Positions 9,237 to 59,598 of a DNA stretch of 64,000 bases are shown here, piece after piece. The stretch comes from Patescibacteria group bacterium (GTDB taxonomy: Bacteria > Patescibacteriota > Patescibacteriia > XYB2-FULL-38-15). Every line of letters begins with the position of its first letter. Position 1 is the first letter of the stretch. A program made the position numbers and the translations under genes. The stretch spans positions 1,105 to 65,104 of the forward strand of contig JBAZEY010000004.1 in NCBI GenBank assembly GCA_041653675.1, given 5' to 3'. The notes under the pieces are model-generated. The model was not told the DNA's origin. It worked only from the letters and a program-made list of their open reading frames with translations, and did no database searches.

Positions 9237-10082
9237 TTATTCATTCAGCCCATTAGCTAGCTTTATCCAGTCGCCTAAAGTCAAGTCCTGAGCTCTAATT
9301 TTCGGATCAAAACCAAATTTTACTAAAATATCCTGTACTTCTTTATTTTTCAGGCGCAGCCCGCCGGATAAATTATTTTGCAGCTGTTTGCGCCTGGCGG
9401 AAAATCCCATTTTGGCTAAGCGAAAAAACTTTTCCGGATCAATTTCTTTTTTATTTTTTTCGTAAATATTTTTAATATCAGAAATCTTTAAAATAGCCGA
9501 ATCCACTTCTGGTTCGGGCCAAAAAGCGCGGCGCGGAACAATGGCTACAATTTCCGGCTCGCCATAAAATTGGACCGAAAGCGAGAGCAAACTCATTTCG
9601 CCGGACTCCGCACAAATTCTCTCTGCTACTTCCTTTTGCACCATTACAGTTATCTCGCTCGGCCGCGGTTCTTCACTCAAAAATTTTCTAAACACCGCCG
9701 AAGTAATTTGATATGGCAGATTAGCGACAAGTTTATAATTATAATTTGATAATCGGTAGTCGGTAATTGGTAATTTTAAAATACTGCCCTCCGCGATTTC
9801 CACGTTTTTAAAATCAGACAAAATTTCTCGCGCCGCCTCCCCCACCGCCCTATCCGCCTCCACTGCCACCACTCGCCCAACCCGCCCGGCAAGCTCCGTT
9901 GTGAGCGTGCCAAACCCCGGACCAATTTCTAAAACTATATCATTCTTTTCTAAGTCAGCTGCCTGAACCATTGTTTCCAAAACCTCGCGGTCTACTAAAA
10001 AATTTTGTCCAAATTCCTTAGATGGACGAATTCCGTATTTTTTACAAAAATTTTTTATAACATTTAAATCAGTTAAATCCAC
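9237..10082 (-). CDS. rsmA: 16S rRNA (adenine1518/1519-N6)-dimethyltransferase RsmA/KsgA
   Basis: FGQNFL motif, SAM-binding GPGFGTLT, length 281 aa. Confidence 0.93.
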   Translation of the reverse strand: MDLTDLNVIKNFCKKYGIRPSKEFGQNFLVDREVLETMVQAADLEKNDIVLEIGPGFGTLTTELAGRVGRVVAVEADRAVGEAAREILSDFKNVEIAEGSILKLPITDYRLSNYNYKLVANLPYQITSAVFRKFLSEEPRPSEITVMVQKEVAERICAESGEMSLLSLSVQFYGEPEIVAIVPRRAFWPEPEVDSAILKISDIKNIYEKNKKEIDPEKFFRLAKMGFSARRKQLQNNLSGGLRLKNKEVQDILVKFGFDPKIRAQDLTLGDWIKLANGLNE

Positions 10083-10084
10083 AG

Positions 10085-10530
10085 AAATAAATTAAAAATT
10101 AAAAATGTAAAATTAAAAATTACAATTAAAAGTTCAAAATTACTTCCTGCCCTTGGTACTCATAATAATAGCGGCTAGTATACGCGACAGTTCATCAGTT
10201 TCTTTTAAAAGTTTGTCAATGTTTAATTTCTGGCCGTCGCGAAATAGACCGAGCCAGTATTTTGTTTCGTTGGCTGATTTAAGGGCAATAGTTAAAAAAT
10301 TTATAAAATCTCTTCGTGAACCGGCGGCCTGAGCTTCAATAATATTCGCACCGATACTCGTGGCGCAGCGCAGAAGTTGTTTGGCCATTATTTCAACAAT
10401 CCAATCTTTTCTATCTAACTTCTTAAGAAAACACAAAATTTCTAAACTAAAAATATAGGCGCGTTTTTTAATGTCAATTTTTAATTTTTCATTGTAATTT
10501 TGCATTTTTAATTTTGAATTTTGAATTAAA
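10085..10530. repeat. Inverted-repeat-bounded cassette carrying the four-helix-bundle (IVS-protein/Avd-like) gene
   Basis: Left arm near 10097-10127 is aaaattaaaaatgtaaaattaaaaattacaat. The reverse complement of the right arm near 10487-10517 is aaaattaaaaatgcaaaattacaatg. Confidence 0.5.
10140..10505 (-). CDS. Four-helix-bundle protein (23S rRNA intervening-sequence protein family, TIGR02436/PF05635; same family as DGR Avd)
   Basis: ATSIGANIIEAQAAGSRRDFINFLTIALKSANETKYWLGL matches the family core. The likely start is the internal MQNYNEK, not the upstream extension that overlaps the MFS gene. Confidence 0.8.
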   Translation of the reverse strand: MQNYNEKLKIDIKKRAYIFSLEILCFLKKLDRKDWIVEIMAKQLLRCATSIGANIIEAQAAGSRRDFINFLTIALKSANETKYWLGLFRDGQKLNIDKLLKETDELSRILAAIIMSTKGRK

Positions 10531-11680
10531 TTAACGCGTACAACGCCGTCATTGCCGCGGCTAAAATAAAAAGCGCGATCCAACTATCCGGAAAAAAGAA
10601 AAGAGTGACAAGGGCAAGCGCGCTCACAATAAGTTTTCCCAAAACTAGAGCCATCTGAAGAAAAATAACGCAATTCATCACGCTGGTTTTTTTCGCTTCT
10701 TCGTAAGTAATAGACGCGAGCGGAACGCCGACGGTTCTTCTTGAAATTCTGTATAATGAGTCGGTCATAAAAACGCCAACTCCGGAAATTACTAAAACTC
10801 TCATAAGCCAAGTAAAGGCCGTAAAAATAACTCCGATTTTTAAAACTTCGTGTCTTGACTCTTCATCCGTAATTCTTCCAATATATAAGGTTAAAATTGT
10901 TGCCACAAAGACGGAGGCAGAAATTAAAAATCCGATGGAAGCATAGGCCGGAATCATTAAAAAAATAAAAATTGGCCAAAGATAACCGGCCAAATGTTCT
11001 TCGCCAAAACCAAAATAAGAAAAAAGTTTTCGTCGATTCTCGGGCGCGACTAGCCGCTTCATTGAATCCCGATAAGAAAAAGGTACTGGCTCAAATTTTT
11101 CCGGAGTGGTGAGAAGAGGGATATTGGAAACTAGAATCAAAAAGGCAACAATAATAAACAAAACTTTAAATCCGACGGTCGCAATGACGACGCCGCCGAA
11201 AGCCGGTCCCAAAATCATTACGATAGAATCAAGCACCACTAAATTGGAAATCTCCCTGCCGCGCGATCCATCTTTACCGAAACGAGCAAAATCGGCGTGG
11301 TAACCCGGCCAATAAAGCGTTTTTTGGATGGCTAAAGAAATGACCGCGCTTACAATAAAAAAAGGATGGTAGGGAATGGCAAACAACGACAAGTAAAAGA
11401 GAATTAAAAAGGGCGTGGAAAAAAGTATGGCGTGTTCGTAGCCGCGACTACGGGCAAATTTTCCGCCAAGCGGTACTAATAAAAAGTACAGGGCGTAAAC
11501 GGCAATATAAAAAATCAAAATTTTGGATAAAGAAAATCCCAGGGTGTAAAGATAGATAGGCTCAAAAACGCCAACCGCCGAAACGGCAAAATCTAAAATC
11601 GCCGTCGACCAAAAAAGCTCCTTTAATTCCCGCGACATGCCATCCGCGAAATAACGATGATAAAAATTACGTAAAAACAT
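10526..11680 (-). CDS. Polytopic membrane transporter, MFS-like
   Basis: About 12 predicted TM helices across 384 aa with Gly/Pro-rich loops; no specific substrate motif recognised. Confidence 0.6.
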   Translation of the reverse strand: MFLRNFYHRYFADGMSRELKELFWSTAILDFAVSAVGVFEPIYLYTLGFSLSKILIFYIAVYALYFLLVPLGGKFARSRGYEHAILFSTPFLILFYLSLFAIPYHPFFIVSAVISLAIQKTLYWPGYHADFARFGKDGSRGREISNLVVLDSIVMILGPAFGGVVIATVGFKVLFIIVAFLILVSNIPLLTTPEKFEPVPFSYRDSMKRLVAPENRRKLFSYFGFGEEHLAGYLWPIFIFLMIPAYASIGFLISASVFVATILTLYIGRITDEESRHEVLKIGVIFTAFTWLMRVLVISGVGVFMTDSLYRISRRTVGVPLASITYEEAKKTSVMNCVIFLQMALVLGKLIVSALALVTLFFFPDSWIALFILAAAMTALYALI

Positions 11681-19854: not shown

Positions 19855-19857
19855 AAT

Positions 19858-19932
19858 TATAGCTTTTAGATTAAAGGTTTCAAATTTAAGATTTTGTTCT
19901 AACCTTAAATCTTAAATCCTCAATCTATTATG
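19858..19932. repeat. Imperfect palindromic element of the AGATTTAAGATT family in the ftsA-ftsZ intergenic region
   Basis: Left arm tagattaaaggtttcaaatttaagatttt. The reverse complement of the right arm is tagattgaggatttaagatttaaggtt. Confidence 0.5.
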
Positions 19933-23094: not shown

Positions 23095-23100
23095 AATATA

Positions 23101-23352
23101 AGATTTAAGATTGCAGATTTAAGATTTAAGATTTTGTAGTGAATGTTCTAAACCATAAAGCATTTTTGAGCATTCCTCATAATCTCTAATAAAATATTCT
23201 ATTTTTTCTTCCGATAAATACTTCTTTTCAAAAGCCATTTTCAAATGATGTTTTGTTTCTCTAATTTCTCCTTGAGCGCGACTAATACATTCTGTATAAA
23301 TGTTAATCTTCAACTCGCACGCCTTTAATCTTTAATCTTAAATCTTTAATCT
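23101..23352. repeat. AGATTTAAGATT-family inverted-repeat cassette enclosing a truncated four-helix-bundle gene
   Basis: Left arm agatttaagattgcagatttaagatttaagatttt (23101-23140). The reverse complement of the right arm (23320-23352) is ccatagattaaagatttaagattaaagattaaagg. Confidence 0.55.
23119..23313 (-). pseudogene. C-terminal half of a four-helix-bundle (IVS-protein/Avd-like) gene; N-terminal half absent
   Basis: ISRAQGEIRETKHHLKMAFEKKYLSEEKIEYFIRDYEECSKMLYGLEHSLQN aligns to the C-terminal two helices of the family. The upstream in-frame stop lies inside the flanking repeat. The annotated start is TTG. Confidence 0.6.
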
Positions 23353-23356
23353 ATGG

Positions 23357-24062: not shown

Positions 24063-27000
24063 CTATCTCACGGTAAACTCACCGCTTCGCTCTTGACCCA
24101 CAGTAGTCATATCACTGCCTCTAAATAACTCTCCTTCACTGGCAGAAAGACTCCAGACAAGAGCAGATCCAGTTCCAGTGCTAAGATTGTATCTCCCCGC
24201 GCCAGTTGTGCCATTGTAAACAATCCGGAAATTGTGCAAACCTCTTGATAAAGTACTGATCACTAGATCTCTTCTGCAATCCGGTGTAAGTCCTCCGCCG
24301 GGAGCAGCACATATACTGGCATTAGTTATACCAACCTTATGGCCATCAATATAAACTTCAAAAACATCAGCCGCATTATTACTGCTCACATGCAGACTTA
24401 TCGTCGCACAGTCCGTCGCGTCATCCATACAGCCGTCGGTTCCACTATCATCATTCGGATCGCAAGCGTCAATTATTTCATCACTGTCAGTATCTGGGCT
24501 ATATCTTAGCCTGCAGGTTTCGCCAGCTGGACAATCACCAGTAACTCTACAAATCCGAGAAGCAGTAGCGCTACAGGTTCCCGTAGATTCATATTTTCTA
24601 TTATCACAAGCCCGACCCGTGGCGCAAGTAATCGCGCAAGACGAAGGACTGCAACCCGGCGAAGTCGGTGTGGTGAGATCTTGTGGCTTGCCCCAAGGAT
24701 TTGAAGTATCAACACAAATCCAACTCGCGGGATATGCCGGCAGACGGCTATCGCATTGTTCCGCGCCGCTCACTGTCCCATCGCCGCAAGTCGGACCGCT
24801 CGCCGTTCTTAACGTGCATTCACGGCTGCAATAATTACAAGTTGATCCATATGGCGCCGTACAAGGCGTACCGTTTACATCTTCGCCGGAATCGCACGTT
24901 TCTATTCCCGCTCTCGTAAATCCATCACCACAACTAGAATTCTGGCAATCTACACAAGCGTCTGTATCTACATCATTTGCGTCATCGCATTGTTCACCAC
25001 CTTCAACCGTGCCATTGCCGCATTCGCCGGTTACTGTGCAAACACCCCAACCTTCATCTCGCCACTGGCATTGTCTTACATCTCCCGATACCTCGCATTC
25101 CAAGGTTCTAACGCGCGGATATCCCGTCCCGGCTTCCGGAGAACACAATAAACATTCTTCTTCTGGTTCCGCGCAGTCCGAGTTGCTCTCACAAACTACA
25201 TTAAAATCATCTGAAAGAATGGGGCTGGCCGGACTCAAGTGTTCATCAACCGGAACACAAACTCCTCTCCCGGACAATAAATTTCTATCACATTCTTCTC
25301 GACCATCGGTCACGGTATTTCCGCAAAATGGCGCCGACCCGACACAACCCGCCGCGCAAATCGGTCGACAAGTGCTGCCCGGACAATCGCTGTCCACACG
25401 ACACGACGATCTATCATTATCACAAATTTTTCCATAATTTCCATTAAGACCTTCATCGTCGCACCGCTCGCCAAATCCGCTTTGCAAAATTCCATCTCCA
25501 CAATAACCGCCACTCATTCGGCAGACAGTAGAACATTGATATTCATTCGTCGGCAATGTCCCGCCTCCCGGAATTCTTCCTCCGCCCGGACCGCGATCGC
25601 AAGCTTCACCCGTATCAATAATCCCATTTCCGCAAGTAGGAAGACACGACCCCCAATCATTCCATCGACAAGTAGCTAAATTACAAGTTCGGCTTTGCCG
25701 ACCCGTTCCACTGCCGCAAGATTGTTCGCTCGTGCGGCACGTTCCGCCCGTAGCAACGCAATCCAAATCACTGCGGCAAAAACTTGTCGGATCCGAAGAA
25801 CATGTATTTAATAAACTCGGTTCGCATTCTTCGGCTTCGTTTTCCGGCGTCGCCGGATTATCAACATTTAGTATTCCATCACCACAAACTCCACCCACAC
25901 TGAAAGTTGTACCATCGCAAACATTTTCATATTTAATGTAGGCTGGAATAGCGTCTCTAAACCAACTCCAACTCGGAAGAATTATCGCGCCCGATGAATT
26001 AGTAAGCTTGTGTTCCAAATCACCGCCAATATTATAAAATCCCGTAGCTGATTCGTAACGATATTGGTAAATATGAGACAAATCGGGACAGTGGTAAGAT
26101 TCTGCGCTCGTGTTCCAACAAGTGTCAGGATTATAAGGATCTACGCAACCCTGAAATTTATTTACCGGATCTTGTGGTAATCCTCCGCCGAGTTCCTGCC
26201 CAAGCACGGCCCATGAATCCCACTTGCTCGTGGAAATCCCTCGAACATACGAACCGGCTTCCAGTTTTGGCGGATAACCTCGCGTCATCATATATCTTTC
26301 CACCTCGGCTTTGATTTTATCTAAATCAGATAAACGTTTAACATCACGGGCCAATTTATCTTTTGGCGCATCACACAAAGATTGTGTCGGAGTTTGTGGA
26401 CAATCCAAATCAGCCGAACAAGGAATCGCTTGATCATCTTCGTCCGTGACAGTTGCCGCGCCGCGCTTACAAACTTTATTATTTTCCAAATTAATATTAA
26501 AATTCCAATTTTCTACCAATTGATTATAAATATCAATTGTGTCCTGGCTGGCATCTTCATTATATGAAATCAAATAAACGTTTGTATAAATGTCTGGCCC
26601 GGAACTAGAGCCGCCAATAAGCGCCGGCTGGTTTGCCGCGGAAACATAAATTGTCCGACCATCTTCCACGGCTTGATATTGATCAACCGTTTTCCCACTC
26701 GGAGACGCCGGTCTGAATCCTTGGGCCGTGTACCAATCGGATAAAGCAAGGTGGTTTTCATTTGTATAAATTCTAATACCGATCGCGTCGGGCGAAGATT
26801 GGCAAGATCCGCCTTCCGGGGCGCACGGATTTTCCGTGTTACAAGGCAATTTGGAAAGGGTACAATAACTCCCCTGAACAAATAAGAAATATTCTCTGAG
26901 TAAAAAGTCAGATGATCCCGGCGGCTCCGGCGGATTATTTACAATCGGCGGATCGCTAACCGTCGGTAAATCATCGCTAAAACCAAGCTCTCCTCTGTCC

Positions 27001-30000
27001 TGGCAATAATATGTTTCAAAATTATATGTTTCATCAGCTAACCCTTCGCCCGTCACGCCAAATCTATCTGGCCATGGATTTTCACAAAGAAAAACTATCG
27101 CGTCGGCCCCGCTACCCAACACTCGTCCCACGGTTCGGGGAGATAAAATTGTATCGGCAGTAATTCTCGCTGAAACTAAAATTCTTGCTTCTCCGTTTTT
27201 ATTTTCCGCTTTCGCCTCTTGGCTAGCATTAAGTTCGCAAACTCCGCCGTCTCTACAATCGCTCGCGCTGTGACAAATTGCAGTCGATTCATTGGAACAA
27301 GCGCCTTCGGGATTTAAGCTAACTACTGTTGGATCGTTAGACACCCAATCTTCCCATTGCCAAGCGTACACCCCGGGCAAGGAAGAAATCGCTCTCCCCC
27401 GCGTGTCTCTCGGTATGGCGGAAAAATTGTGTGTTTCACCACTCTGCGTAAAAACATGAACCTCCGGCGTAAATGTCACTTGGCTCAAAGCACAAATGTC
27501 ACCGCCCGTCTTAAACGACCATTCATAAATTTCCCTGCCGCTGTAGGCCGCGGGGTATTCACCGGATAAGCTACCTCCACCCAACGCCACGCCTTTTGAA
27601 TTTCTAATCCCCTCAATCTCGGGCGTTGTAGAATTGTCACCTAAAATCAAAACTCTATAGTCATTATCACTATCAAAAGCTTTAGTTGGACTAAAGCTTA
27701 CTTCCGTCACCAAATTTCCACCTTTATTTACAACAACAGACGACGCTGTTCCCGGCCAGACGCACCACGGACTTCCCGGCGCGGCGCTCGCCGGCTCGCC
27801 GAGCAATGATTGCCCAAATTTATTGACGAAATCTTTTACTTGGCTAAAAATCTTTAAATCATTCTCAATTTTATTAATCGGCTTAACCAATATTCTCGCA
27901 ATCGGCGGAGGCAGCCACTTCTTTATTTTTTCAAAAAATTGCCAACCGGATTTTCCTTCGCCGGTCCATAGAGCTAATTGTACCGTTCCGTCAGGACACG
28001 TCCCGCCGTAATTGCCGACGACTAAAATATTACCCGTGACGCTCGCTGTTTCCATTACATCGTCAAATGTCACAGAAATTCTGGCATTGCGGCAAACTTC
28101 AACCGCTCCTGAATCACAACCAACCGCGCCATCCCGAGTGGGATCGCAGTTTGTCACTTTTGGTTTAAAGTAGCAACATGTGTTGCGGCCAACTCCCAAT
28201 TCGCAATCAGCGTCAGTTGTGCAAGATTGTGAAGTTGTTCCTGAACATATATTAGAAGTTGAAATACACGACAAACGAATTGCACTGCAATCCTGACCGC
28301 CGCAGCGCAAAGTCAAATCGCCGCTGTCGGATTTTCCCTCTGTCGCGGCTGAAATTTCCGTGGTGCTGGAATTTACTCCGGCCGCCACGTCCTCCGTGGC
28401 AAGATCAATTGCTTCGGCCGTTTGGTATGGATCAATTCTCGCGTCCGTGACTGTTCCTTCATTTAAGCAAGTATCACTGCAACCCGGCCCTGGAGCGTTC
28501 CCATCGTCGCAATCTTCACCGCGTTCTTTCGCCCGATTTCCACAAACTCCCCCGCCAGCCACAGATCCTTCGTGTTGGCAAATATTATTACATCCATCCC
28601 CCGAACGAGTATTTCCGTCATCACAATCTTCGCCAATTTGAATTATGCCATTACCACAAGTTGAATCATAACGCGCGTTTGATCCTTCGTTCAAACAAGT
28701 CGCATTACAACCATCAAGCGTTGCCGTATTGCCATCGTCACAGTCTTCGCCAAATTCTTTTACGCCATTTCCGCAAGATGGATAATTATTATCATTGGTA
28801 ATTGTTGCCACTCCTGGATCAGCCGATGCCCAGCCCCAATTATAATCCATAGCACCAAGCTGCTGGCCGTTCGGGCTACAGAGATCTGGCTCGCTGAAAG
28901 GCGTGGAAGAATAATTTTGCGTCGCGCCGATAAAATTCAAAATCGCGTTTTGCGGATCAACTGCCACGCGATCCACGGCGCAAGGACTGGCATCATCTTT
29001 AGTTTTGAAAGTCCAAGAGTAAGCAGAAAAAGCCGCCGGGTCGCCGGCCGGATAATTTAAATCAGTCAAATGGACGCCGCTCGTTGAAGTAACACGATCA
29101 GAAATAACGGCGCGATAATAAGTATTCGGCGTAAAGAGCACTAAAGGCTCAATAACCATTTTTTTTGCGACCGAATCGTAAGAAGTTCCTGCCAGAGAAA
29201 CTTCCTCCAGAGCTCTCGTTCCTTCATTTAAACAAGTTGTCGCGTTGCAGTTGGCCGGGAATGGAGATCCGTCACAATCTTCACCTTCTTCAACCAGGCC
29301 ATTACCGCAAACCGCGGCGGCGCCATCGCTGCCGATATTTAAACATGTGGTGCGATTACAACGCTCCGGAAATGGCACACCGTCGCAATCTTCACCGGTT
29401 TCGCGGCGATCATTGCCACAGTACGAACCATAAAGCGCGTTTGACCCTTCATTCAAACAAGTCGCGCTGCAACCGTCGCCTGCCGTCGCATTGCCGTCAT
29501 CACAATCTTCACCGGGCTCAATCACGCCATTGCCGCATTTCCAAATATAAAGATTAACATTTGCCGCGCTCTCCACGCTCGCCTGATTCATGTTTGTATT
29601 AAATTCCGCGCCGACTTCCGCGTTAGCGCAAGCATCACTGCAGTTCGGCCACGCATTTTCTACTCTTGGGTCTGTAAAATTAATTGTCAAATTTCCTGAG
29701 CCAAATTTACTTTCACTTGGAATTCCGCCGGTAATTCGAACCGGCAAACCAACTTCTGTTTCCGCCCGAGCCGTGGCAACTTCACTCGGAGTAATACTAC
29801 CAGCCACAGTGGCTTTTGAAATATCTGACGAAGTCCAGCGCCAAGGACTATAAGCGCTGCAATCAATTGTTATGCAAACATCGCCGGCCGCATAACACAA
29901 ACTATCATAATTCTGTGTCGCCCCAATACTTACTAAAGTCCGTTCATACGGAGAAACCCCAACTAAACCGATATCACACGTCTCGTCGCTGTCGCGGGTT

Positions 30001-32975
30001 TTAAATTGCCAAATATAATCGCCACCTTCCACTCCATCTCGGTCGCCATCCAAGAAAAATCCCCCATCCGGACAACCGGCGCCTCCAAGACAGCTTTCTA
30101 TTCCTGTGCCGGCAACCGCGTCACTTTTCAAAGTCACCTGATACCAAGTATTTTGCGTCCACTTTCTTCCTACCGGCAACAACTTAAGTTCAAAACCATC
30201 TTGATGGTCATCAATGTCACTAAATCTAACACTGCTGCCAGTAACCTCTGCTTTCGTCGTACAGGTTTGATCAGAACAGCTTTCAACTAAAATATTTGAT
30301 GTATTTACTGATGCTGGATTTATTTTTGTCGTGAAGCGCGCCGTTATTGTGGCGTTAACACAAACTCTCTCTCCTCCATCTCTGCCAGACCATGGTGAAG
30401 GTGAAGCCGGCCCCGGCGGTGGGGGATTGCTGCAGCTTTCTACCACTTGCGGATAAATCGGAAGTTGGCCAGTGGAAAATTGCCAGAAATAATACCCTTT
30501 ACCCGCGGCCGCAGCGCACGCTACGGCGCAACTGCCATCACGGCAACATTGCTGGCCGGAAGAACAAGTGGCGCCCGTGCGACAATCTTGAACTATAAAA
30601 TTAACACTATTTCCCGTTGCTCCCCCAGAAGTAACATTAACCGGACCGGTTTGGGTTCCGGTCGGAACAGGCGTAGAAATTTGTATGCCGTCAGTTGGAG
30701 TAACAGTCGCAGGAGTTGACCGATAAAAATTAACTAAAGCCGACGCGCCAAAGCGCTCGCCATCAATTCTCACCGGCAAATCAATCGGTCCATTGTCCGG
30801 AGTAATTTTACAAATTCCCGGACCGGCCGTTCCAGAATCAACCGTAAAATCCGATGTTGTTAAATCGCTTGTATCATCAGACTGGCCACCCGCGGTTCCA
30901 GCAGTCGTAATTTTTATAACATCTGTAACCGCGCCGGTCGGAACTTTTACAATAATTTGATCGTTTTTCCACCAATCAGCTCCGCAAGCCGCAGGAAAAT
31001 CTGTCGCGGCCAAAAGATCCGCGCCGCCGATATCTTTAAAAAATACTTGGCCGGTTTCATTGAGAAAATTGGCGCCAAAAATTGTCACGTACTCGCCTAT
31101 TGGCCCATGCGTCGGAGAAAAACTTAAAATTCTTGGCGCTTCGGCCGTGGCGACAACTTGGAAATTAATTGGATTGCTGTTTTCACCGCCAACCACGACT
31201 TGTACTGGAACCGTAGCCGGAGCGATTAAAGGTACAACCGCGCCAATGCTCGTGGGAGTCCAGAGACTAACTCGTTCTGCTCGTGTTCCGCCAAAAATTA
31301 TTTCACTTGTTCCTTGTGTCGCGCCAAATTGAGTGCCAGCAACAACTACTTCAATTCTCGGCTCGCCATTATCCGGCGTAATTGAACAAATTCCCGGCCG
31401 GCTTGTATCATTTATATCAAAATTTGGCAAAACCGGACCGCGCTCATCATCAGTTTGATCGGTATAGTCAGCTGCGGTCGCGCCGGTTGGCGGAGGCACC
31501 ACAACTTTTACCGGACCATCAGTCGCGCCAGCAGGAACAACCGCGATAATCTGATTATTTTGCCAAGTAGCTGAAGCAGGACAAGCCGGCGTTCCAGATA
31601 AAACATTATTAAAATAAACTTGGCCGGAAATATCTCCAAATCCTTGGCCAAAAATTGTCACGTAATTTCCTACTGCTCCATCGTTTGGCGAAACGGCAGT
31701 AATTTCTGGTAGAGTTCGGCAAACTCCGCCAATACATGATCCTCCGCGGCAATCTGTTCCGCTCGTGCAAGATCCTCCGTCGCAAGTTCCGCAATCCGCG
31801 CCACCACAATCAATATCTGTTTCATCCGCGTCCTGTCGCCCGTTAAAACAATGCGCCGCCCGGACAATTACGTCCACGCCGCCAGAAGTAGTATTATTGG
31901 AATCAATATCAAAAGCTTTCGTCGTCAAAGTATGTCTTGATCCAGCCGTAACGCCAGTTGTATCCCAATCAAAAATTGATGAATAGTCACGCGGCGTTGG
32001 ACCAGAGGGTGCATCAGTTCCAAGCGTTCCGCCATTTGAAAAATATTCCAAATAAGAAATTCCCGCGTCGTCTGTCGCGTGCGCCTCAATCGAAACTATC
32101 GCGTCAGCCGAAACAGAAGCGCCCGGATTGGGAGAAGTGATTCTTACTTCCGGCCCGGTCACGTCAACTAAATTTCCTGTTGTAAAATTGGCCGTACAAT
32201 TTGGCGCGAGTCCGCCACAAACTAAAAATTTTCCATCAGTACTTCGGAGACCGGTTGCCGCTTCCACCGTAAATTCCGTGTCCGCGTCAAAACATTTTCT
32301 GTCAACGTTCGGTGCCGGACAATTGGCACTCGGAACGAATTCCACGACCGTTCCGGAAGCGCTCGCTGTTCCGTCCACTAAACTTCCGTCAGCCGTCACG
32401 GTTAAATTTCCCGCTAAAGTTGTCGCGTCAACATTTTTGTTAAAAACAACGCGCACGACAACATTTCGAATTGGTATAGCGCCATTCGGCTGAATTCCGC
32501 GGACAACAAATGAATCAGACGGCAAACCACCGCCACCGCCTCCTCCACCACCGCCACCGCCTCCTCCACCACCGCCACCGCCTCCTCCACCACCGGTAAT
32601 GCCCGTCGCTTCCATTAATCTATTCATAACATACTGGGTGATGCCAAAAGAGAAAATAATAATAATCAAACCTATCAAAGCATTAACCAGAATTTTTTTG
32701 GCCTGCGATATCCGCTCCTCATTGCCGCCAGCCGTCATCCAAACAAAACCGCCGTAAATTACAATGGCTACGGCGACAATCCCCAAAAATCCGAGCGCTA
32801 CACGAATAATTTGCGCCGCGACCACTCGCGGATCTTCCGTCGGTAGAGCAATTTCATTTCCCACTTCATTCACCCCAAAATCCTGGGCGAAAATAGTTGT
32901 AGCAAACAAAAACGCACCCGTAATCAAAAACAGGGAAAAAAGAAATTTTAAAATTTTCTTCTCGTGTGGTTTCAT
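24063..32975 (-). CDS. Giant (2970 aa) Cys-rich cell-surface protein with N-terminal VirB2/TrbC-pilin-like double-TM domain and poly-Gly linker
   Basis: After the signal peptide (cleavage ...TIFAQ-D), LGFLGIVAVAIVIYGGFVWMTAGGNEE ... LIGLIIIIFSFGITQYVMNRL ... TGGGG parallels Ti VirB2 and RP4 TrbC. A run of about 24 Gly follows. Several CGNGxxExGEDCDDGNxxxGDGC repeats; beta-rich extracellular modules. Confidence 0.85.
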   Translation of the reverse strand: MKPHEKKILKFLFSLFLITGAFLFATTIFAQDFGVNEVGNEIALPTEDPRVVAAQIIRVALGFLGIVAVAIVIYGGFVWMTAGGNEERISQAKKILVNALIGLIIIIFSFGITQYVMNRLMEATGITGGGGGGGGGGGGGGGGGGGGGGGLPSDSFVVRGIQPNGAIPIRNVVVRVVFNKNVDATTLAGNLTVTADGSLVDGTASASGTVVEFVPSANCPAPNVDRKCFDADTEFTVEAATGLRSTDGKFLVCGGLAPNCTANFTTGNLVDVTGPEVRITSPNPGASVSADAIVSIEAHATDDAGISYLEYFSNGGTLGTDAPSGPTPRDYSSIFDWDTTGVTAGSRHTLTTKAFDIDSNNTTSGGVDVIVRAAHCFNGRQDADETDIDCGGADCGTCDGGSCTSGTDCRGGSCIGGVCRTLPEITAVSPNDGAVGNYVTIFGQGFGDISGQVYFNNVLSGTPACPASATWQNNQIIAVVPAGATDGPVKVVVPPPTGATAADYTDQTDDERGPVLPNFDINDTSRPGICSITPDNGEPRIEVVVAGTQFGATQGTSEIIFGGTRAERVSLWTPTSIGAVVPLIAPATVPVQVVVGGENSNPINFQVVATAEAPRILSFSPTHGPIGEYVTIFGANFLNETGQVFFKDIGGADLLAATDFPAACGADWWKNDQIIVKVPTGAVTDVIKITTAGTAGGQSDDTSDLTTSDFTVDSGTAGPGICKITPDNGPIDLPVRIDGERFGASALVNFYRSTPATVTPTDGIQISTPVPTGTQTGPVNVTSGGATGNSVNFIVQDCRTGATCSSGQQCCRDGSCAVACAAAAGKGYYFWQFSTGQLPIYPQVVESCSNPPPPGPASPSPWSGRDGGERVCVNATITARFTTKINPASVNTSNILVESCSDQTCTTKAEVTGSSVRFSDIDDHQDGFELKLLPVGRKWTQNTWYQVTLKSDAVAGTGIESCLGGAGCPDGGFFLDGDRDGVEGGDYIWQFKTRDSDETCDIGLVGVSPYERTLVSIGATQNYDSLCYAAGDVCITIDCSAYSPWRWTSSDISKATVAGSITPSEVATARAETEVGLPVRITGGIPSESKFGSGNLTINFTDPRVENAWPNCSDACANAEVGAEFNTNMNQASVESAANVNLYIWKCGNGVIEPGEDCDDGNATAGDGCSATCLNEGSNALYGSYCGNDRRETGEDCDGVPFPERCNRTTCLNIGSDGAAAVCGNGLVEEGEDCDGSPFPANCNATTCLNEGTRALEEVSLAGTSYDSVAKKMVIEPLVLFTPNTYYRAVISDRVTSTSGVHLTDLNYPAGDPAAFSAYSWTFKTKDDASPCAVDRVAVDPQNAILNFIGATQNYSSTPFSEPDLCSPNGQQLGAMDYNWGWASADPGVATITNDNNYPSCGNGVKEFGEDCDDGNTATLDGCNATCLNEGSNARYDSTCGNGIIQIGEDCDDGNTRSGDGCNNICQHEGSVAGGGVCGNRAKERGEDCDDGNAPGPGCSDTCLNEGTVTDARIDPYQTAEAIDLATEDVAAGVNSSTTEISAATEGKSDSGDLTLRCGGQDCSAIRLSCISTSNICSGTTSQSCTTDADCELGVGRNTCCYFKPKVTNCDPTRDGAVGCDSGAVEVCRNARISVTFDDVMETASVTGNILVVGNYGGTCPDGTVQLALWTGEGKSGWQFFEKIKKWLPPPIARILVKPINKIENDLKIFSQVKDFVNKFGQSLLGEPASAAPGSPWCVWPGTASSVVVNKGGNLVTEVSFSPTKAFDSDNDYRVLILGDNSTTPEIEGIRNSKGVALGGGSLSGEYPAAYSGREIYEWSFKTGGDICALSQVTFTPEVHVFTQSGETHNFSAIPRDTRGRAISSLPGVYAWQWEDWVSNDPTVVSLNPEGACSNESTAICHSASDCRDGGVCELNASQEAKAENKNGEARILVSARITADTILSPRTVGRVLGSGADAIVFLCENPWPDRFGVTGEGLADETYNFETYYCQDRGELGFSDDLPTVSDPPIVNNPPEPPGSSDFLLREYFLFVQGSYCTLSKLPCNTENPCAPEGGSCQSSPDAIGIRIYTNENHLALSDWYTAQGFRPASPSGKTVDQYQAVEDGRTIYVSAANQPALIGGSSSGPDIYTNVYLISYNEDASQDTIDIYNQLVENWNFNINLENNKVCKRGAATVTDEDDQAIPCSADLDCPQTPTQSLCDAPKDKLARDVKRLSDLDKIKAEVERYMMTRGYPPKLEAGSYVRGISTSKWDSWAVLGQELGGGLPQDPVNKFQGCVDPYNPDTCWNTSAESYHCPDLSHIYQYRYESATGFYNIGGDLEHKLTNSSGAIILPSWSWFRDAIPAYIKYENVCDGTTFSVGGVCGDGILNVDNPATPENEAEECEPSLLNTCSSDPTSFCRSDLDCVATGGTCRTSEQSCGSGTGRQSRTCNLATCRWNDWGSCLPTCGNGIIDTGEACDRGPGGGRIPGGGTLPTNEYQCSTVCRMSGGYCGDGILQSGFGERCDDEGLNGNYGKICDNDRSSCRVDSDCPGSTCRPICAAGCVGSAPFCGNTVTDGREECDRNLLSGRGVCVPVDEHLSPASPILSDDFNVVCESNSDCAEPEEECLLCSPEAGTGYPRVRTLECEVSGDVRQCQWRDEGWGVCTVTGECGNGTVEGGEQCDDANDVDTDACVDCQNSSCGDGFTRAGIETCDSGEDVNGTPCTAPYGSTCNYCSRECTLRTASGPTCGDGTVSGAEQCDSRLPAYPASWICVDTSNPWGKPQDLTTPTSPGCSPSSCAITCATGRACDNRKYESTGTCSATASRICRVTGDCPAGETCRLRYSPDTDSDEIIDACDPNDDSGTDGCMDDATDCATISLHVSSNNAADVFEVYIDGHKVGITNASICAAPGGGLTPDCRRDLVISTLSRGLHNFRIVYNGTTGAGRYNLSTGTGSALVWSLSASEGELFRGSDMTTVGQERSGEFTVR
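32528..32596. repeat. Perfect 3x tandem 21-nt repeat encoding the poly-Gly linker
   Basis: The unit gccaccgcctcctccaccacc occurs three times on the plus strand, in frame (7 Gly per unit). Confidence 0.7.
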
Positions 32976-34103: not shown

Positions 34104-35963
34104 TTATTCTATCGGCCACGTGCAACCCGCGCCGACGGGATCAGTGCAACTTGTTCCAGCAGCTGGCCCAACTGGTTCATAAAAACAATTTTGATAAATA
34201 TCTTTAATTCTATGCGTCGCCCGCGGAAAATATCTTACGAGATTCTCGTCAACCGCCGCGCCATCAGCGCAAGTCGGCGCCGGAGCAGGCGCTTCAGTGC
34301 TCTCAATAAACTCCCCATGATAAATTATTGCTTTATGTTTTACCGGCGTTCCTCCGCGCGGTGTGGGCACGCCAAGGGCGTCTGTCCCCTCCCCTCCCAA
34401 AGTAAACCAAACGGCGCAAGCGTCGCGTTCGTTATCATCTAAAATTATATTTTCTGAAGAAAAACTAGTCACACTCATTGGTTTACTAAATCTAAATTCA
34501 ACCGGCGCGTCGAGCGCTACATCACTTCCACTCGCCGCTGGTAGGAGAGTTTCAATTCTCGGCGGAATTAAATCAATTGTATTATTGGTAGCAAAATCCC
34601 AAGCATAATTATCGGTTGGCGGACCTTCGGCCACGTCATCTCCGTCTCCGTCTAAAGAATTTCCTACCACGTCAGTCGCACCAGTGTAAGGCATTTCTGC
34701 TTCTGGCGGAGTTGTACCTAGACGCGCGGCTTTTACATTCACGGAAATATCAGCATCAGCGGGCAAACAAAAAACATCACCGCCGCAGGAATTTGTCCCA
34801 CATCGAAAATCGGTTGTAAATTCTATAGTTTTATATTGATTGCCAATCGCCCAAGTTCCAGCAACGGGTCCGGGAACCGGCACACCGTCGGCCAAAACTT
34901 CAATTTTATCAAAACCTTCCGCCGTTTTGCCGGCCACGGTTGTCGGATCCATGGCTTCGTCAAAATTTACTTGAACTAAAATATTTCTGGCGTTTGTCGT
35001 TGCGTCTCCCGGAATTACGCTTTCCACTTCTGGCGGCGTAACATCAACAAAAGTGCTCACTTCAAAATCCCAGGCATAACCATCACTAAACGCGCCAGTA
35101 AAGGCGTCTCCTCCGTCGGCCTTTTTCAAACCAGGCTTTAACGCCACCGTATACCAAATATTTTCCGATGGACTCCCTAAAAGTTCCGCCGGATCAAAGG
35201 TGAAATTTTTTAAATCAGTCGTGAAACCAACCCTTGCCTCGCCCGGCTCCAAATAATTGATCACGCCACCCGCACCGGTTTCTCCCTGGAGGGATTGATA
35301 AATTCTAATATTTTCGCTCTTTATCGGTAAAACCGTTGCCGGAGTGACGGCCACGCCTCCGAGTGTATCATCTCCAGGATTGGCCGGATCGTTAATCTCA
35401 TAACCTTCAATAATTGTATCCAGCGCCATTGGCTCTTTGAAAGTGATAATAACTTTTGTATTTCGGGCAATGCCCGTGCCGCCGCGTGGTGGATAATGGC
35501 TTTCAATAATACTATTGCCAAGTGCGCCGGAGTAGCGGCCAACCGCCGGCGGTCCGCCTCCTCCGCCGCCCGCGCCTCCTCCGCCGCCCAAGGCGCTAAT
35601 CAACGTATTTAATACATATTGTGTAATTCCAAACGCCATCAAAATAATCACTAAACCAATCAAGCCATTTGTTAAAATTTTCTTGGCGGTGGCAATTTTT
35701 TCTTCATTCCCGGCTGAAGTCATCCAAACAAAACCGCCGTAGAGCACAATGCCCAGCGCGACAACTCCCAAAAATCCGAGTACAACTCGGATGATTCTCG
35801 CGGCAATCACGCGCGGGTCGCCATCAACCAGAGCAATCTCATTTCCCACTTCGTTTAATCCAAAATTCTGAGCCAAAGCAATTTGGACAAACAAAAGACT
35901 GGCCGTGATAACGGTCAACCCCATTAAAATCTTTAACGCCCTTTTAACTTGCATGTGCGGCAA
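34104..35963 (-). CDS. 619-aa paralog with VirB2/TrbC-pilin-like N-terminal domain, poly-Gly linker and extracellular beta-rich region
   Basis: AQNFGLNEVGNEIALVDGDPRVIAARIIRVVLGFLGVVALGIVLYGGFVWMTSAGNEEKIATAKKILTNGLIGLVIILMAFGITQYVLN is nearly colinear with the N-terminus of the 2970-aa protein; GGGGGAGGGGGGPP linker follows. Confidence 0.8.
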   Translation of the reverse strand: MPHMQVKRALKILMGLTVITASLLFVQIALAQNFGLNEVGNEIALVDGDPRVIAARIIRVVLGFLGVVALGIVLYGGFVWMTSAGNEEKIATAKKILTNGLIGLVIILMAFGITQYVLNTLISALGGGGGAGGGGGGPPAVGRYSGALGNSIIESHYPPRGGTGIARNTKVIITFKEPMALDTIIEGYEINDPANPGDDTLGGVAVTPATVLPIKSENIRIYQSLQGETGAGGVINYLEPGEARVGFTTDLKNFTFDPAELLGSPSENIWYTVALKPGLKKADGGDAFTGAFSDGYAWDFEVSTFVDVTPPEVESVIPGDATTNARNILVQVNFDEAMDPTTVAGKTAEGFDKIEVLADGVPVPGPVAGTWAIGNQYKTIEFTTDFRCGTNSCGGDVFCLPADADISVNVKAARLGTTPPEAEMPYTGATDVVGNSLDGDGDDVAEGPPTDNYAWDFATNNTIDLIPPRIETLLPAASGSDVALDAPVEFRFSKPMSVTSFSSENIILDDNERDACAVWFTLGGEGTDALGVPTPRGGTPVKHKAIIYHGEFIESTEAPAPAPTCADGAAVDENLVRYFPRATHRIKDIYQNCFYEPVGPAAGTSCTDPVGAGCTWPIE

Positions 35964-50439: not shown

Positions 50440-50514
50440 AGCGGGGTGGAGAAGTAGCATCTCGCCTGGCCCATAACCAGGAGACCGCCGGTGCAAATCC
50501 GGCCCCCGCAACCA
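50440..50514 (+). tRNA. Initiator tRNA-fMet (anticodon CAU) with encoded CCA
   Basis: 3' half GGTGCAAATCCGGCCCCCGCAACCA is almost identical to E. coli tRNA-fMet. Unpaired 1:72 (A/A) and A11:U24 are initiator hallmarks. Anticodon loop CCCATAA has an unusual C33. Confidence 0.8.
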
Positions 50515-56848: not shown

Positions 56849-59215
56849 TTATTCTTTGTTAAGTGCCAGGTGTTTAGTCAAAGCTCCTCGCAAAACGTCA
56901 TCTACGTCTTTAGCAAAAATAAATTTTAAATCTTTTCTGACATTAGCCGGAATTTCTTCCAAGTCTTTTTCATTATCCTTGGGTAAAATTATTGTTTTTA
57001 CGTCGGCCCGGTGAGCGGCTAAAACTTTTTCTTTAACTCCACCAATTTCTAAAGCGCGGCCGCGGAGCGTCACTTCGCCGGTCATCCCAACATCTTTTTT
57101 AATAGGCGTTCCTGTTAAAACTGATATAATCGCCGTCGCCATGGCTACGCCAGCTGACGGACCGTCCTTCGGAATCGCTCCGGCCGGAACATGAATATGA
57201 ATGTCTGAATCTTTATAAAATTTGTCTTTAATACCAAAAGATTTGGCGCGTGATCGGGCATAAGAATATGCCGCTTGCGCCGATTCCTGCATAACTTTGC
57301 CGAGTTGTCCGGTTAAAATCAACTGTCCCTTTCCCGGCATTTTAGTCGCCTCAATTAAAAGTATTTCGCCGCCCGCCTGTGTCCAAGCTAGGCCAGTTGA
57401 AACCCCAACTTCATCTTTTTTCTCAGCCATTGTTGTATGATATTTTTCTGGTCCTAAAAATTGGTGAAGATCGGAAATGCCAACTTTATAATTTTTCTCG
57501 TCGCCCTCAGCAATTTTTCGCGCCACCTTTCGACAGATAGCGGAAATATTTCTTTCAAGCTCGCGGACGCCGGCTTCGCGCGTATATTCCCTTATAACAG
57601 CCCTAACTGCCGGTTCGGTAATGATAAGCCTCTCGCCATCATGCAAGCCGTTCTCTTTTAATTGTTTGGGAATGAGAAAATTTTTCGCAATATGAAATTT
57701 TTCTTCCTCAATGTATCCGGGAAATTCGATCATCTCCATGCGGTCGCGAAGCGCCGGCGGAATGGTATCTAAAACATTGGCCGTGGTAATAAACATCACA
57801 TCCGACAAATCAAACGGGATTTCAAGATAATGATCTGAAAAAGCGTAATTTTGTTCTGGATCCAGTGCTTCAAGCAACGCGGCTGACGGATCGCCGCGAA
57901 AATCGGCTCCAACTTTATCAATTTCATCAAGCATAAAAACGGGATTTTTCATGCCAGCTGTATTTACTCCCTGGATGATTCTGCCTGGCAGAGCGCCGAC
58001 ATAAGTTCGTCGATGGCCGCGAATTTCTGCCTCATCGCGAATGCCGCCGAGTGACATTCTAAAAAATTTTCGGCCAAGAGCTTTGGCGATAGATTTTCCA
58101 ATAGAAGTTTTGCCCGTTCCTGGCGGCCCGGAAAAACAAAGGATTGGACCCTTAATTTTCCCAACTAGCTTTTGCACGGCCAAATATTCCAAAATTCTTT
58201 CTTTAACTTTATCTAAACCATAATGATCTTCATCAAGAACTTTTTGAGCTTTTTTAATATCAACCTTACTTTCGGTCTTTTTCGACCACGGCAACATAAT
58301 TAACCAATCAAGATAGGTTCTAATATAAGAAATTTCCGGACTAAAAGACGGCATTTTTTCAAGACGCGCCAACTCTTTTAGGGCCTGCTCCTTTGCTTCG
58401 GGAGCCATCCCGGCCTTTTCTATTTTTTCTTTTAATTCCTCTACCTCACTCCGACCGCCGGCCATACCCAATTCTTTTTCAATCGTTTTCATCTGCTCGC
58501 GCAAAAACATTTCTTTTTCCATTTTTCCCAACTCCTTGCCGGTTTCCGCCTGAATTTTTTGAGCCATGCGTAAAACTTTCAATTGCCTCCCGATCGATTC
58601 CCCAAGTTTCCCCAATTTATTTTCAATATTGTCGGCTTCAAGAATCGCCTGCTTCTCATCAACTTTAAAATCCAAATTTATTGTCATCAAGTCAGCCAAT
58701 TCCCATGGGTCAGTAATATTTAAAATTACCAAAAGCACGTCGAAAGGAACAGTCGCACCAAGCGAAACACATTCCTTAAATTGATTAATCAAACTATACA
58801 TCAAGGCTTCAATCCGTTCTGTCTTTTTAACCATCGGCTCCGGGGCTGGCTCAACTTTAACTCTGATAAAAGGATCAAATGATAAAAATTCTGTAATTTT
58901 TGCACGAATCATTCCCTCAACTACGATTCGCACAGACCCATCGGGCTGTTTTGTAATTTCCCTAATTTTAGCGAGTGTGCCGACAGAATAAAGATCATCC
59001 TTGGTAATTTTATCTCCCACGTCTTTTTTTTCTGCGACACAAACTGCCATCTGATCGTGCTGCATCGCATAATCTAAAGCTTTCAAAGTTTTTTCTTTTT
59101 TAACTATTAAAGTCAAAGCAACTCTCGGAAAAACAACAACGTCAACCAGCGGAATTATAGCTAGTTCTTTTTTAGCCTTACTGTCCAGCGTGCTTAAATT
59201 TTTTTCTGCCTCCAT
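56849..59215 (-). CDS. lon: ATP-dependent Lon protease
   Basis: Walker A GPPGTGKTS; catalytic Ser context PKDGPSAGVAMATAI; Lon N-terminal domain. Confidence 0.95.
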   Translation of the reverse strand: MEAEKNLSTLDSKAKKELAIIPLVDVVVFPRVALTLIVKKEKTLKALDYAMQHDQMAVCVAEKKDVGDKITKDDLYSVGTLAKIREITKQPDGSVRIVVEGMIRAKITEFLSFDPFIRVKVEPAPEPMVKKTERIEALMYSLINQFKECVSLGATVPFDVLLVILNITDPWELADLMTINLDFKVDEKQAILEADNIENKLGKLGESIGRQLKVLRMAQKIQAETGKELGKMEKEMFLREQMKTIEKELGMAGGRSEVEELKEKIEKAGMAPEAKEQALKELARLEKMPSFSPEISYIRTYLDWLIMLPWSKKTESKVDIKKAQKVLDEDHYGLDKVKERILEYLAVQKLVGKIKGPILCFSGPPGTGKTSIGKSIAKALGRKFFRMSLGGIRDEAEIRGHRRTYVGALPGRIIQGVNTAGMKNPVFMLDEIDKVGADFRGDPSAALLEALDPEQNYAFSDHYLEIPFDLSDVMFITTANVLDTIPPALRDRMEMIEFPGYIEEEKFHIAKNFLIPKQLKENGLHDGERLIITEPAVRAVIREYTREAGVRELERNISAICRKVARKIAEGDEKNYKVGISDLHQFLGPEKYHTTMAEKKDEVGVSTGLAWTQAGGEILLIEATKMPGKGQLILTGQLGKVMQESAQAAYSYARSRAKSFGIKDKFYKDSDIHIHVPAGAIPKDGPSAGVAMATAIISVLTGTPIKKDVGMTGEVTLRGRALEIGGVKEKVLAAHRADVKTIILPKDNEKDLEEIPANVRKDLKFIFAKDVDDVLRGALTKHLALNKE

Positions 59216-59220
59216 AAATA

Positions 59221-59300
59221 TTAGATTATAGATTTAAGGTTACAGATTTAAGAAATTTTTCGCCACCATCTCACTTTAATCTTAAATCTTTAATCTGAAA
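59221..59300. repeat. Palindromic element of the AGATTTAAGATT family
   Basis: Left arm tagattatagatttaaggttacagatttaagaaa. The reverse complement of the right arm is tagatttcagattaaagatttaagattaaag. About 18-nt loop. Confidence 0.55.
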
Positions 59301-59301
59301 T

Positions 59302-59598
59302 CTATTTGAAAGGTAACGATGCTTGTTTGCCCTGCAAACTTTTCGCCACTTTTCGTCCTATCGCCGTCAATTTTATTTCTTTAATAAACCATTTTTTCGG
59401 CGTCCGGACACCGTAGCCAATAAGAAAACCCTTGTCAATTAATCTTTCCAGGGATTTTGTGACAATATTTACTCTATCCTCCATCTTGGGCGGCCGCTTT
59501 TGCTTATCATAAAACCGCAAAATTTTTCCACGGCCAAACTTGTTCTTTTCTGCGTAGCCCAAGCCCAAAATATACTTTTGGAGAAGGGATATTTTCAT
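59302..59598 (-). CDS. Small basic hypothetical protein (98 aa)
   Basis: ORF only; no recognisable motif. Confidence 0.4.
   Translation of the reverse strand: MKISLLQKYILGLGYAEKNKFGRGKILRFYDKQKRPPKMEDRVNIVTKSLERLIDKGFLIGYGVRTPKKWFIKEIKLTAIGRKVAKSLQGKQASLPFK

Follow-up and report, generated by a model that had tools for sequence, protein, structure and literature searches.

What is an intact gene for a four-helix-bundle (4HB) protein, of the family encoded in intervening sequences (IVSs) of 23S rRNA, doing between two protein-coding genes of a Patescibacteria genome, and why is it bracketed by inverted repeats? The gene in question lies in a 64,000-nucleotide stretch of contig JBAZEY010000004.1, called the window hereafter. 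The reading that we favour, and that taken as one package we regard as somewhat more probable than not, is that of a mobile IVS-type cassette. It would be co-transcribed with its host operon, its arms would pair in the RNA, RNase III would release it and a protein pentamer would bind it. The gene and its arms recur across phyla as a discrete unit. Related genomes have it or lack it at exact junctions between genes, and it is oriented like its upstream neighbour, without room or signal for a promoter or terminator of its own. The locus comprises the following features:

10140-10505, minus strand: intact 4HB gene (PF05635/TIGR02436), 121 residues, ATG start, stop included; from profile matches
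10083-10525, minus strand: whole cassette, 443 nt, exactly occupying the spacer between the two host genes; from comparison with the relative L095
10476-10532, minus strand: 5' (upstream) arm, an A-rich heptamer array on the sense strand; from inverted-repeat search, motif test and lag-7 periodicity
10085-10141, minus strand: 3' (downstream) arm, the complementary T-rich heptamer array on the sense strand; from inverted-repeat search, with a lag-7 array at 10087-10131
10526-11680, minus strand: major facilitator superfamily (MFS) transporter gene (MFS_1), upstream host gene; from a profile match
9237-10082, minus strand: rsmA/ksgA, downstream host gene, GTG start; TIGR00755, E 3.8e-69

The 121-residue product scores well above the cutoffs of both family models, PF05635 (E 6.3e-21; 75 bits for a cutoff of 33.8) and TIGR02436 (E 5.7e-25; 87.6 bits for a cutoff of 24). 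Its translation includes the peptide SIGANIIEAQAAGSRRDFINFLTIALKSANETKYWL quoted in the first-pass annotation of this DNA, which had described an intact gene of the IVS-protein/Avd family between rsmA and an MFS transporter. The open reading frame (ORF) is indeed complete and both neighbours were identified on the same strand; the length of 122 residues given at that stage has to be corrected to 121. The 4HB gene is separated by 20 nt from the MFS gene and by 57 nt from rsmA, and the same protein is found in the same context in two public assemblies. A terminator scan revealed no rho-independent terminator in the cassette. The number of promoter-like sites within it (4 vs 2.4 +/- 1.3 expected) does not represent a significant excess.

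The two arms measure 57 nt each and are 81% complementary. The inverted repeats reported initially are thus real, and they reach well beyond the ~30 nt first assigned to them. The upstream arm spans the stop codon of the MFS gene, the 20-nt spacer, the ATG and the first ~9 codons of the 4HB gene. Its best-aligned core (10483-10527) covers positions -22..+22 around the ATG, in agreement with the initial description of an arm overlapping the first codons. The downstream arm extends from the 4HB stop codon to 3 nt short of the rsmA GTG, with its core at 10090-10134 (+5..+49 past the stop). Being A-rich on one side and T-rich on the other, the arms would pair in part through composition. The RNAduplex free energy of the window arms accordingly gives a z of only -1.5. 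This energy is confounded by GC content (-32.0 for own arms and -32.8 for shifted windows, with GC-richer coding controls scoring equally) and was therefore replaced by a composition-controlled alignment score. Smith-Waterman alignment of the 5' flank with the reverse complement of the 3' flank yielded z = 8.0 relative to dinucleotide shuffles. The 19-nt core motif AATTAAAAATGYAAAATTA occurs four times in the window, all within the two arms, for 0.04 occurrences expected. Both arms are arrays of ~7-nt A-tract units of the AAAATTN type, and a strict lag-7 scan of the window gave three hits, all of them in arms of cassettes, and none in block shuffles.

We determined how general this architecture is using 86 non-redundant homologous genes from at least 12 phyla, with 80 loci from a scan of species-representative genomes and the contexts of database homologues. 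The hosts include lineages of the candidate phyla radiation (CPR), Omnitrophota, Zixibacteria, Ignavibacteria, Dehalococcoidia, Planctomycetota, Bacteroidales and a Methanophagales archaeon, among others. Proteins ~55% identical are spread across at least 12 phyla, one archaeon included. The median inverted-repeat z of the arms in the 86 homologues is 5.7, with z > 3 in 80% of them, as opposed to a median of -0.1, with 1% above 3, for control windows taken 1.1 kb away within each locus (Mann-Whitney p ~1e-30). The upstream arm has a median span of -24..+15 relative to the ATG, which it covers in 70% of the homologues, and the downstream arm a median span of +2..+44 past the stop. Their autocorrelation peaks at lags 7 and 14, a sharp 7-nt periodicity that is seen in both arms. 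Each arm consists of ~6 copies of a heptamer specific to the element (e.g. GCGTAAA, CTCAAAA, GGAATTA or CAGTNNN), and the opposite arm is the complementary array. At the protein level, M1, Q2 and N3 are nearly invariant in the homologues, and the AlphaFold2 (AF2) model shows disorder over the first four residues. This invariance fits a nucleotide-level constraint imposed by the arm. The family is very large. Among 1.84 billion representatives of 50% identity clusters, a profile search recovered 11,566 with E <= 1e-3, of which 3,405 had E <= 1e-10; nearly all are 100-135 residues long.

The two arms of each element co-evolve. They score higher with each other than with the arms of other loci (35.5 vs 22; Wilcoxon p 2.6e-13). 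The same holds inside multi-copy genomes, where exchanging arms between copies lowered the score in 16 of 18 comparisons (18.1 swapped, 33.3 own), which rules out an artefact of host composition. For a covariation test, we aligned 36 elements anchored on the ATG and the stop, drew a 44-pair helix by hand and compared it with 500 shuffles. Standard pairs amount to 76.1%, compared with 70.6% after shuffling, and cells changed on both sides to 151, compared with 87 +/- 8; neither value was reached in any shuffle (0/500). The covariation score is 0.217, as against 0.133 for the shuffles and 0.04-0.08 when the helix is slid by 1-3 columns. Compensatory changes were found in 23 of the pairs.

The genomic contexts of the homologues are typically operon interiors. 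Of 80 upstream neighbours, 79 are co-directional with the gene, as are 73 of 79 downstream neighbours; the baseline for other adjacent pairs in these loci is 83%. The median gaps around the genes are 33 nt upstream and 56 nt downstream. A common site is the spacer between two glycosyltransferase genes, where the cassette is stable across many contigs. Operons of pilin genes also serve as hosts, in one case with three copies in 6 kb. On a plasmid of Chondrinema litorale WSW3-B12 (NZ_CP111046.1, 250,600-251,300), the cassette sits between the genes of a resistance-nodulation-division (RND) adaptor and its permease, and the same architecture is found in cultured Bacteroidota and on Nostoc plasmids. 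Several genomes hold multiple copies with unrelated arms in unrelated operons. Large-subunit (LSU) rRNA was absent from all 40 homologous loci tested with Rfam, and the Rfam scan of the window returned only tRNAs and no rRNA. Matches to a 23S-motif regular expression in the loci were isolated and of low quality, and the Rfam result bore out the lack of LSU rRNA in these 40 loci. Identical proteins were always found in identical contexts, with no sign of very recent transposition.

Some of these contexts deserve mention in their own right. In L191 (Nostoc sp. TCL26-01 plasmid NZ_CP040299.1, 27283-27639), the cas2 and cas1 genes are separated by a member of the family that has AGTAAAA-type heptamer arms and runs on the opposite strand. 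The '23S rRNA IVP' has been reported to be statistically associated with CRISPR loci (PMC10910872), and insertions such as this one could explain the association. In CPR pilin operons (L183-L190), two PF05635 cassettes are accompanied by a stand-alone gene for an 86-residue GIY-YIG protein, and the upstream content differs between otherwise identical contigs. This variation suggests that several kinds of small selfish genes occupy these operon spacers.

Presence and absence of the cassette can be followed among the relatives of the host, which we identified by their rsmA genes in a scan that yielded 80 loci. In the closest one found, L095, the rsmA, epimerase and MFS genes are 77%, 79% and 92% identical to those of the window. 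Its gene order is epimerase-MFS-rsmA, and the junction reads TAA-ATTAAA-ATG, with 6 nt between the MFS stop and the rsmA start. This is a clean empty site. The rsmA gene starts there with ATG (2501-2503), whereas that of the window starts with a GTG right after the 3' arm (10080-10082). The cassette is also missing from the MFS/rsmA spacer of L096, whose rsmA is 72% identical to that of the window. This spacer (L096 1866-2500) instead holds a gene for a 161-residue Y1/IS200-like transposase (PF01797, E 6e-7) followed by repeated GC-rich hairpins (CGCGGGCTAAAGCCCGCGGCTACCG), a layout reminiscent of repetitive extragenic palindromes (REPs) and their associated transposases (RAYTs). The MFS/rsmA spacer appears to be an insertion hot spot. 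Conversely, L096 harbours a different PF05635 cassette after a gene for a TSP3-repeat protein (E 1.1e-33; GGAATTA heptamers, 18-nt perfect inverted repeat), where the window has an 11-nt spacer only. The first-pass annotation had argued that absence of the cassette from close relatives, combined with absence from the genome of a reverse transcriptase (RT) and of a template/variable repeat (TR/VR) pair, would favour a selfish IVS-like element over a retroelement remnant. The cassette is indeed absent from L095 and L096, the two closest relatives found, which speaks for such a selfish element; no RT or TR/VR pair was found in the window. The MFS gene itself is 92-93% identical between the window and L095/L096 (94% between the latter two), for only 72-79% in the flanking rsmA and epimerase genes, and it is missing from the syntenic locus of a more distant relative, L003. 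It may be a recent acquisition.

The window contains a second, decayed cassette and two ORF-less hairpins made of similar heptamers:

23095-23356, minus strand: second, decayed cassette, flanked by the genes of a TSP3-repeat protein and of an unannotated 329-residue protein; from repeat search and profile matches
19855-19927, minus strand: ORF-less heptamer hairpin in the ftsA/ftsZ spacer, candidate cassette relic; from shared AGATTTA units
59214-59305, minus strand: ORF-less heptamer hairpin upstream of lon, candidate cassette relic; from AGATTTA/AGATTAA units

The decayed cassette has arms of AGATTTA-type heptamers (23100-23133 and 23323-23352; 26 nt, 88%). They enclose a 64-residue remnant (23119-23313) that corresponds to the C-terminal half of a PF05635 protein (Pfam E 5.7e-08, profile positions 60-106; TIGR02436 E 1.5e-07). 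In the ftsA/ftsZ spacer, the hairpin is more stable in the sense RNA (-19.3 kcal/mol, z -4.0) than in the antisense RNA (-11.8). Judging from their shared units and their positions, the ORF-less hairpins may be relics of cassettes. AGATTTA-type arms were found in none of the 190 loci searched, so that the link between hairpins and cassettes comes from the window alone. The ftsA/ftsZ spacer of L003 harbours no comparable hairpin.

How might such a cassette operate? Under the IVS-type reading, it would be transcribed by read-through from the MFS gene. The A-rich 5' array of the RNA, with the start codon inside it, would pair with the U-rich 3' array to form a duplex of ~45 bp, and the 4HB protein would then be translated only until the 3' arm has been synthesized. 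By analogy with IVSs in pre-23S rRNA, the duplex would be a substrate for RNase III, and the cassette would be cut out of the polycistronic RNA with the flanking cistrons left usable. Such excision would let the element occupy rRNA genes or operon spacers without ruining the flanking RNA. Avd binds a stem-loop of the DGR RNA (bioRxiv 10.1101/2023.10.23.563531), and on this model a pentameric, Avd-like protein probably binds the nucleic-acid structure formed by the arms.

Several results weigh against this interpretation. The whole-cassette RNA (476-nt transcript) is no more stable than its shuffles (z 0.01), and RNAalifold yields no consensus helix (no pairs), two measures that are uninformative for AU-rich arms; the long-range arm stem appears in both the minimum free energy structure and the centroid of this transcript. 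When the 44-pair helix is slid by +/-7 columns, 60-65% of the pairs are still Watson-Crick. Much of the pairing thus stems from the repetitive heptamer design and not from one fixed register. There is no strand asymmetry either: G:U pairs number 88 and A:C pairs 101 in the fixed register, and 74 and 96 in local alignments. In the absence of a G:U excess over A:C, complementarity could be kept at the level of DNA or of RNA. No target-site duplication is visible in the two filled/empty comparisons (window vs L095, and L096 vs window), although a short one could have been erased, given the 22-28% divergence of host proteins. No mechanism of movement was seen. Finally, a 4HB gene at the same rsmA-adjacent place in the distant relative L003 could reflect long vertical residence instead of mobility.

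A first alternative is that the cassette is mobile as DNA. The arms would then be terminal inverted repeats (TIRs) or hairpin ends recognized by a trans-acting transposase or recombinase, with the 4HB protein as a passenger or an accessory factor and RNA pairing as an incidental property. Co-variation of the arms within each element is equally expected from a protein that reads both ends, the G:U and A:C counts raise no objection, and presence or absence at precise junctions is what such an element would produce. The Y1 transposase gene and REP-like hairpins in the MFS/rsmA spacer of L096 point the same way. However, a pure DNA transposon predicts neither the 79/80 co-orientation with the upstream gene nor an ATG in fixed register within the 5' arm. 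No target-site duplication is visible in the two filled/empty comparisons, and the arm motif occurs nowhere else in the window. Moreover, arms differ among the copies of one genome, so that a single trans-acting transposase would need to read many sequences. We therefore consider this explanation unlikely.

A second alternative is that of a resident, vertically inherited and non-mobile host gene, with the arrays controlling translation or mRNA stability of a small nucleic-acid-binding protein. L003 provides arguments for it. Its 4HB gene is 86% identical to that of the window and likewise lies just upstream of rsmA, although rsmA and the epimerase gene are only 46% and 56% identical. Between the two 4HB genes, dN is 0.093 and dS 1.6 (saturated), for a dN/dS of ~0.06, and the sequences thus indicate strong purifying selection on the protein. 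The stable position between glycosyltransferase genes over many contigs agrees with long residence. Nevertheless, neither of the two closest relatives found has the gene, L095 showing a clean junction of 6 nt in its place, and several genomes carry copies with unrelated arms in unrelated operons. A resident gene accounts poorly for the spread of ~55%-identical proteins to 12 or more phyla, one archaeon included, for truncated and ORF-less copies, or for family members inside 16S and 23S rRNA genes of CPR bacteria (PMC11270868). The data from the window and L003 fit ancient vertical residence followed by loss as well as they fit independent gain. A non-mobile host gene seems rather unlikely to us.

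The third alternative was raised by the first-pass annotation, which saw in the gene an orphan Avd or the remnant of a DGR that diversifies the giant surface proteins encoded nearby. DGRs are common in CPR genomes, which counts in its favour, as do the homology of PF05635 with Avd and the presence of giant genes in the vicinity. The protein fold also resembles that of bAvd (4DWL, 8UB7), with TM scores of 0.65-0.81, at 15-18% identity and E 0.3-0.5. The AF2 monomer (pLDDT 91.2) is a predicted single-domain four-helix bundle, with helices at residues 4-28, 35-59, 64-92 and 97-118. Its best match in the Protein Data Bank is 2RLD (BT_0352; TM 0.80-0.87, 38-41% identity, profile E 1.7e-22), a crystal entry with five chains, and 2GSC (Xcc0516) is also among the nearest solved structures. 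The modelled structure thus groups with 2RLD and 2GSC (TM 0.8) rather than with bAvd. The protein matches neither NF033474, the Avd equivalog, nor PF22296 (bAvd) at E <= 0.01. No RVT domain was detected in 20 ORFs of the window, including every otherwise unannotated ORF of 280-500 residues, and no RT was found among Pfam-annotated neighbours in ~10 homologue contexts. The direct repeats of at least 45 nt in the window show mismatches at all four bases, with no A-biased pair among them. The early remark that no RT or TR/VR pair was seen in the window therefore stands, and the retroelement hypothesis drawn up alongside it finds no footing within the window. As the inverted-repeat and heptamer architecture is also foreign to DGRs, we deem a retroelement origin very improbable. 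Searches with PADLOC and PHROGs gave no hits, and a defence-system or phage-protein reading is unsupported.

The giant gene itself (24063-32975; 2970 residues) has internal repeats, D1-D3, with a spacing of ~115-760 nt. Its 5' end shares stretches of 76-78% identity (D4, D7) with the 5' end of the neighbouring 619-residue Big_5/T4SS-pilin gene (34104-35963), and the mismatches between these repeats are not adenine-biased. Elsewhere in the window, ARAGORN predicts a second tRNA-Met (50440-50514), for which the Rfam tRNA model is silent at the gathering threshold.

The last alternative, that the inverted repeat is a chance product of an AT-rich, low-complexity spacer, draws on the A-rich and T-rich composition of the arms, the duplex-energy z of -1.5 and the whole-RNA fold z of 0, but it is refuted by the shuffle and shifted-window controls (a motif unique to the two arms, an alignment z of 8.0, controls centred on zero and recurrence in 80% of the homologues) and has practically nothing left to recommend it.

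The IVS-type reading can be carried further, to an autonomous mini-element in which a pentameric 4HB ring reads the ~six heptamers of its own arms. The protein might then exert TRAP-like autoregulation on its own leader, or it might mark the excised RNA for a reverse transcriptase acting in trans, in the manner of Avd. We regard this extension as speculative and rather unlikely. If it were true, 23S IVSs, stand-alone 'S23 family' genes and the Avd of DGRs would all derive from one class of heptamer-guided mobile cassettes, and the ORF-less heptamer hairpins would represent footprints or landing pads.

Knowledge of rRNA intervening sequences with an ORF dates back to the early 1990s. Our analysis suggests that these residents of rRNA genes make up only a minority of a very large family. 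Its defining unit would be a PF05635 gene with inverted, element-specific heptamer arrays, and its usual home the spacer between co-transcribed genes. The old puzzle of where IVSs come from, what their proteins do and how they spread thereby becomes testable, through RNase III processing of operon mRNAs at the arms and binding of the heptamers by the protein. The Chondrinema and Nostoc plasmids and Bacteroides BT_0352 offer test beds in cultured organisms. The findings also bear on the evolutionary origin of the Avd of DGRs. In addition, they carry a warning for annotation: where genes for 'four helix bundle proteins' turn up in operons, CRISPR loci or polysaccharide clusters, they have probably been inserted there and are not components of the pathways concerned. 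A literature search of incomplete coverage found no description of operon-embedded, heptamer-bracketed PF05635 cassettes, and one may already have been published.

Finally, we compared the cassette with known systems. It shares terminal inverted repeats with TIR-bounded transposons and miniature inverted-repeat transposable elements (MITEs). In contrast with these, its arm motif is confined to one cassette in 64 kb, and its sole ORF codes for the 4HB protein and not for a transposase. The Correia/nemis MITEs of Neisseria and the enterobacterial repetitive intergenic consensus/intergenic repeat unit (ERIC/IRU) sequences are also bounded by inverted repeats, lie inside operons and are co-transcribed, and their RNA hairpins are substrates for RNases. 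The two ORF-less heptamer hairpins of the window behave alike. These elements are devoid of genes and occur as many near-identical copies with target-site duplications, whereas each PF05635 cassette has its own arm sequence and a conserved gene.

The bAvd protein of DGRs (4DWL/8UB7) has in common with the window protein the four-helix-bundle fold, in a family that forms pentameric barrels and binds RNA stem-loops. It differs by its low sequence identity (15-18%), and the window cassette has heptamer-array inverted repeats and no RT, TR or VR in its vicinity within the window. The closest solved structures are those of BT_0352 (2RLD) and Xcc0516 (2GSC), stand-alone members of the 'S23 ribosomal protein family'.

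The ORF-containing 23S IVSs of Leptospira, Coxiella burnetii, Xanthomonas and Brucella, like the window cassette, code for a PF05635 protein (S23p/IVP). The IVS of C. burnetii is 428-444 nt long, for 443 nt in the window, and is located in helix 45 of 23S rRNA, with a 28-bp stem of terminal inverted repeats that is cut by RNase III (PMC4990558). Its S23p (PF05635) ORF lies in the loop and is preceded by 3-4 tandem heptamers (GACAGAT) right before the ATG, and cleavage by RNase III removes the Shine-Dalgarno region (PMC4990558). The window cassette likewise has terminal inverted repeats around the ORF and tandem heptamers immediately before the ATG, with the ribosome-binding and start region in or beside the stem, and ORF-less relatives exist in both cases. 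The likeness to the rRNA IVS stem noted at the outset, an enclosing stem around a PF05635 ORF, is thus strengthened by the heptamers. A sporadic distribution suggestive of horizontal spread is also shared (PMC4990558; PMC11270868), and in CPR bacteria 23S_rRNA_IVP ORFs occur within some of the 16S and 23S insertions (PMC11270868). The two kinds of element also differ. The ORF of the window is under strong purifying selection, as estimated from its sequence, whereas that of Coxiella is reported to be decaying and probably untranslated. In addition, the window cassette resides in the spacer of a protein-coding operon and not in helix 9, 25 or 45 of 23S rRNA. It thus has every structural feature of an ORF-containing IVS except location and, as residence in an rRNA gene is the defining feature of IVSs, we class it as an IVS-like variant and not as an IVS proper.

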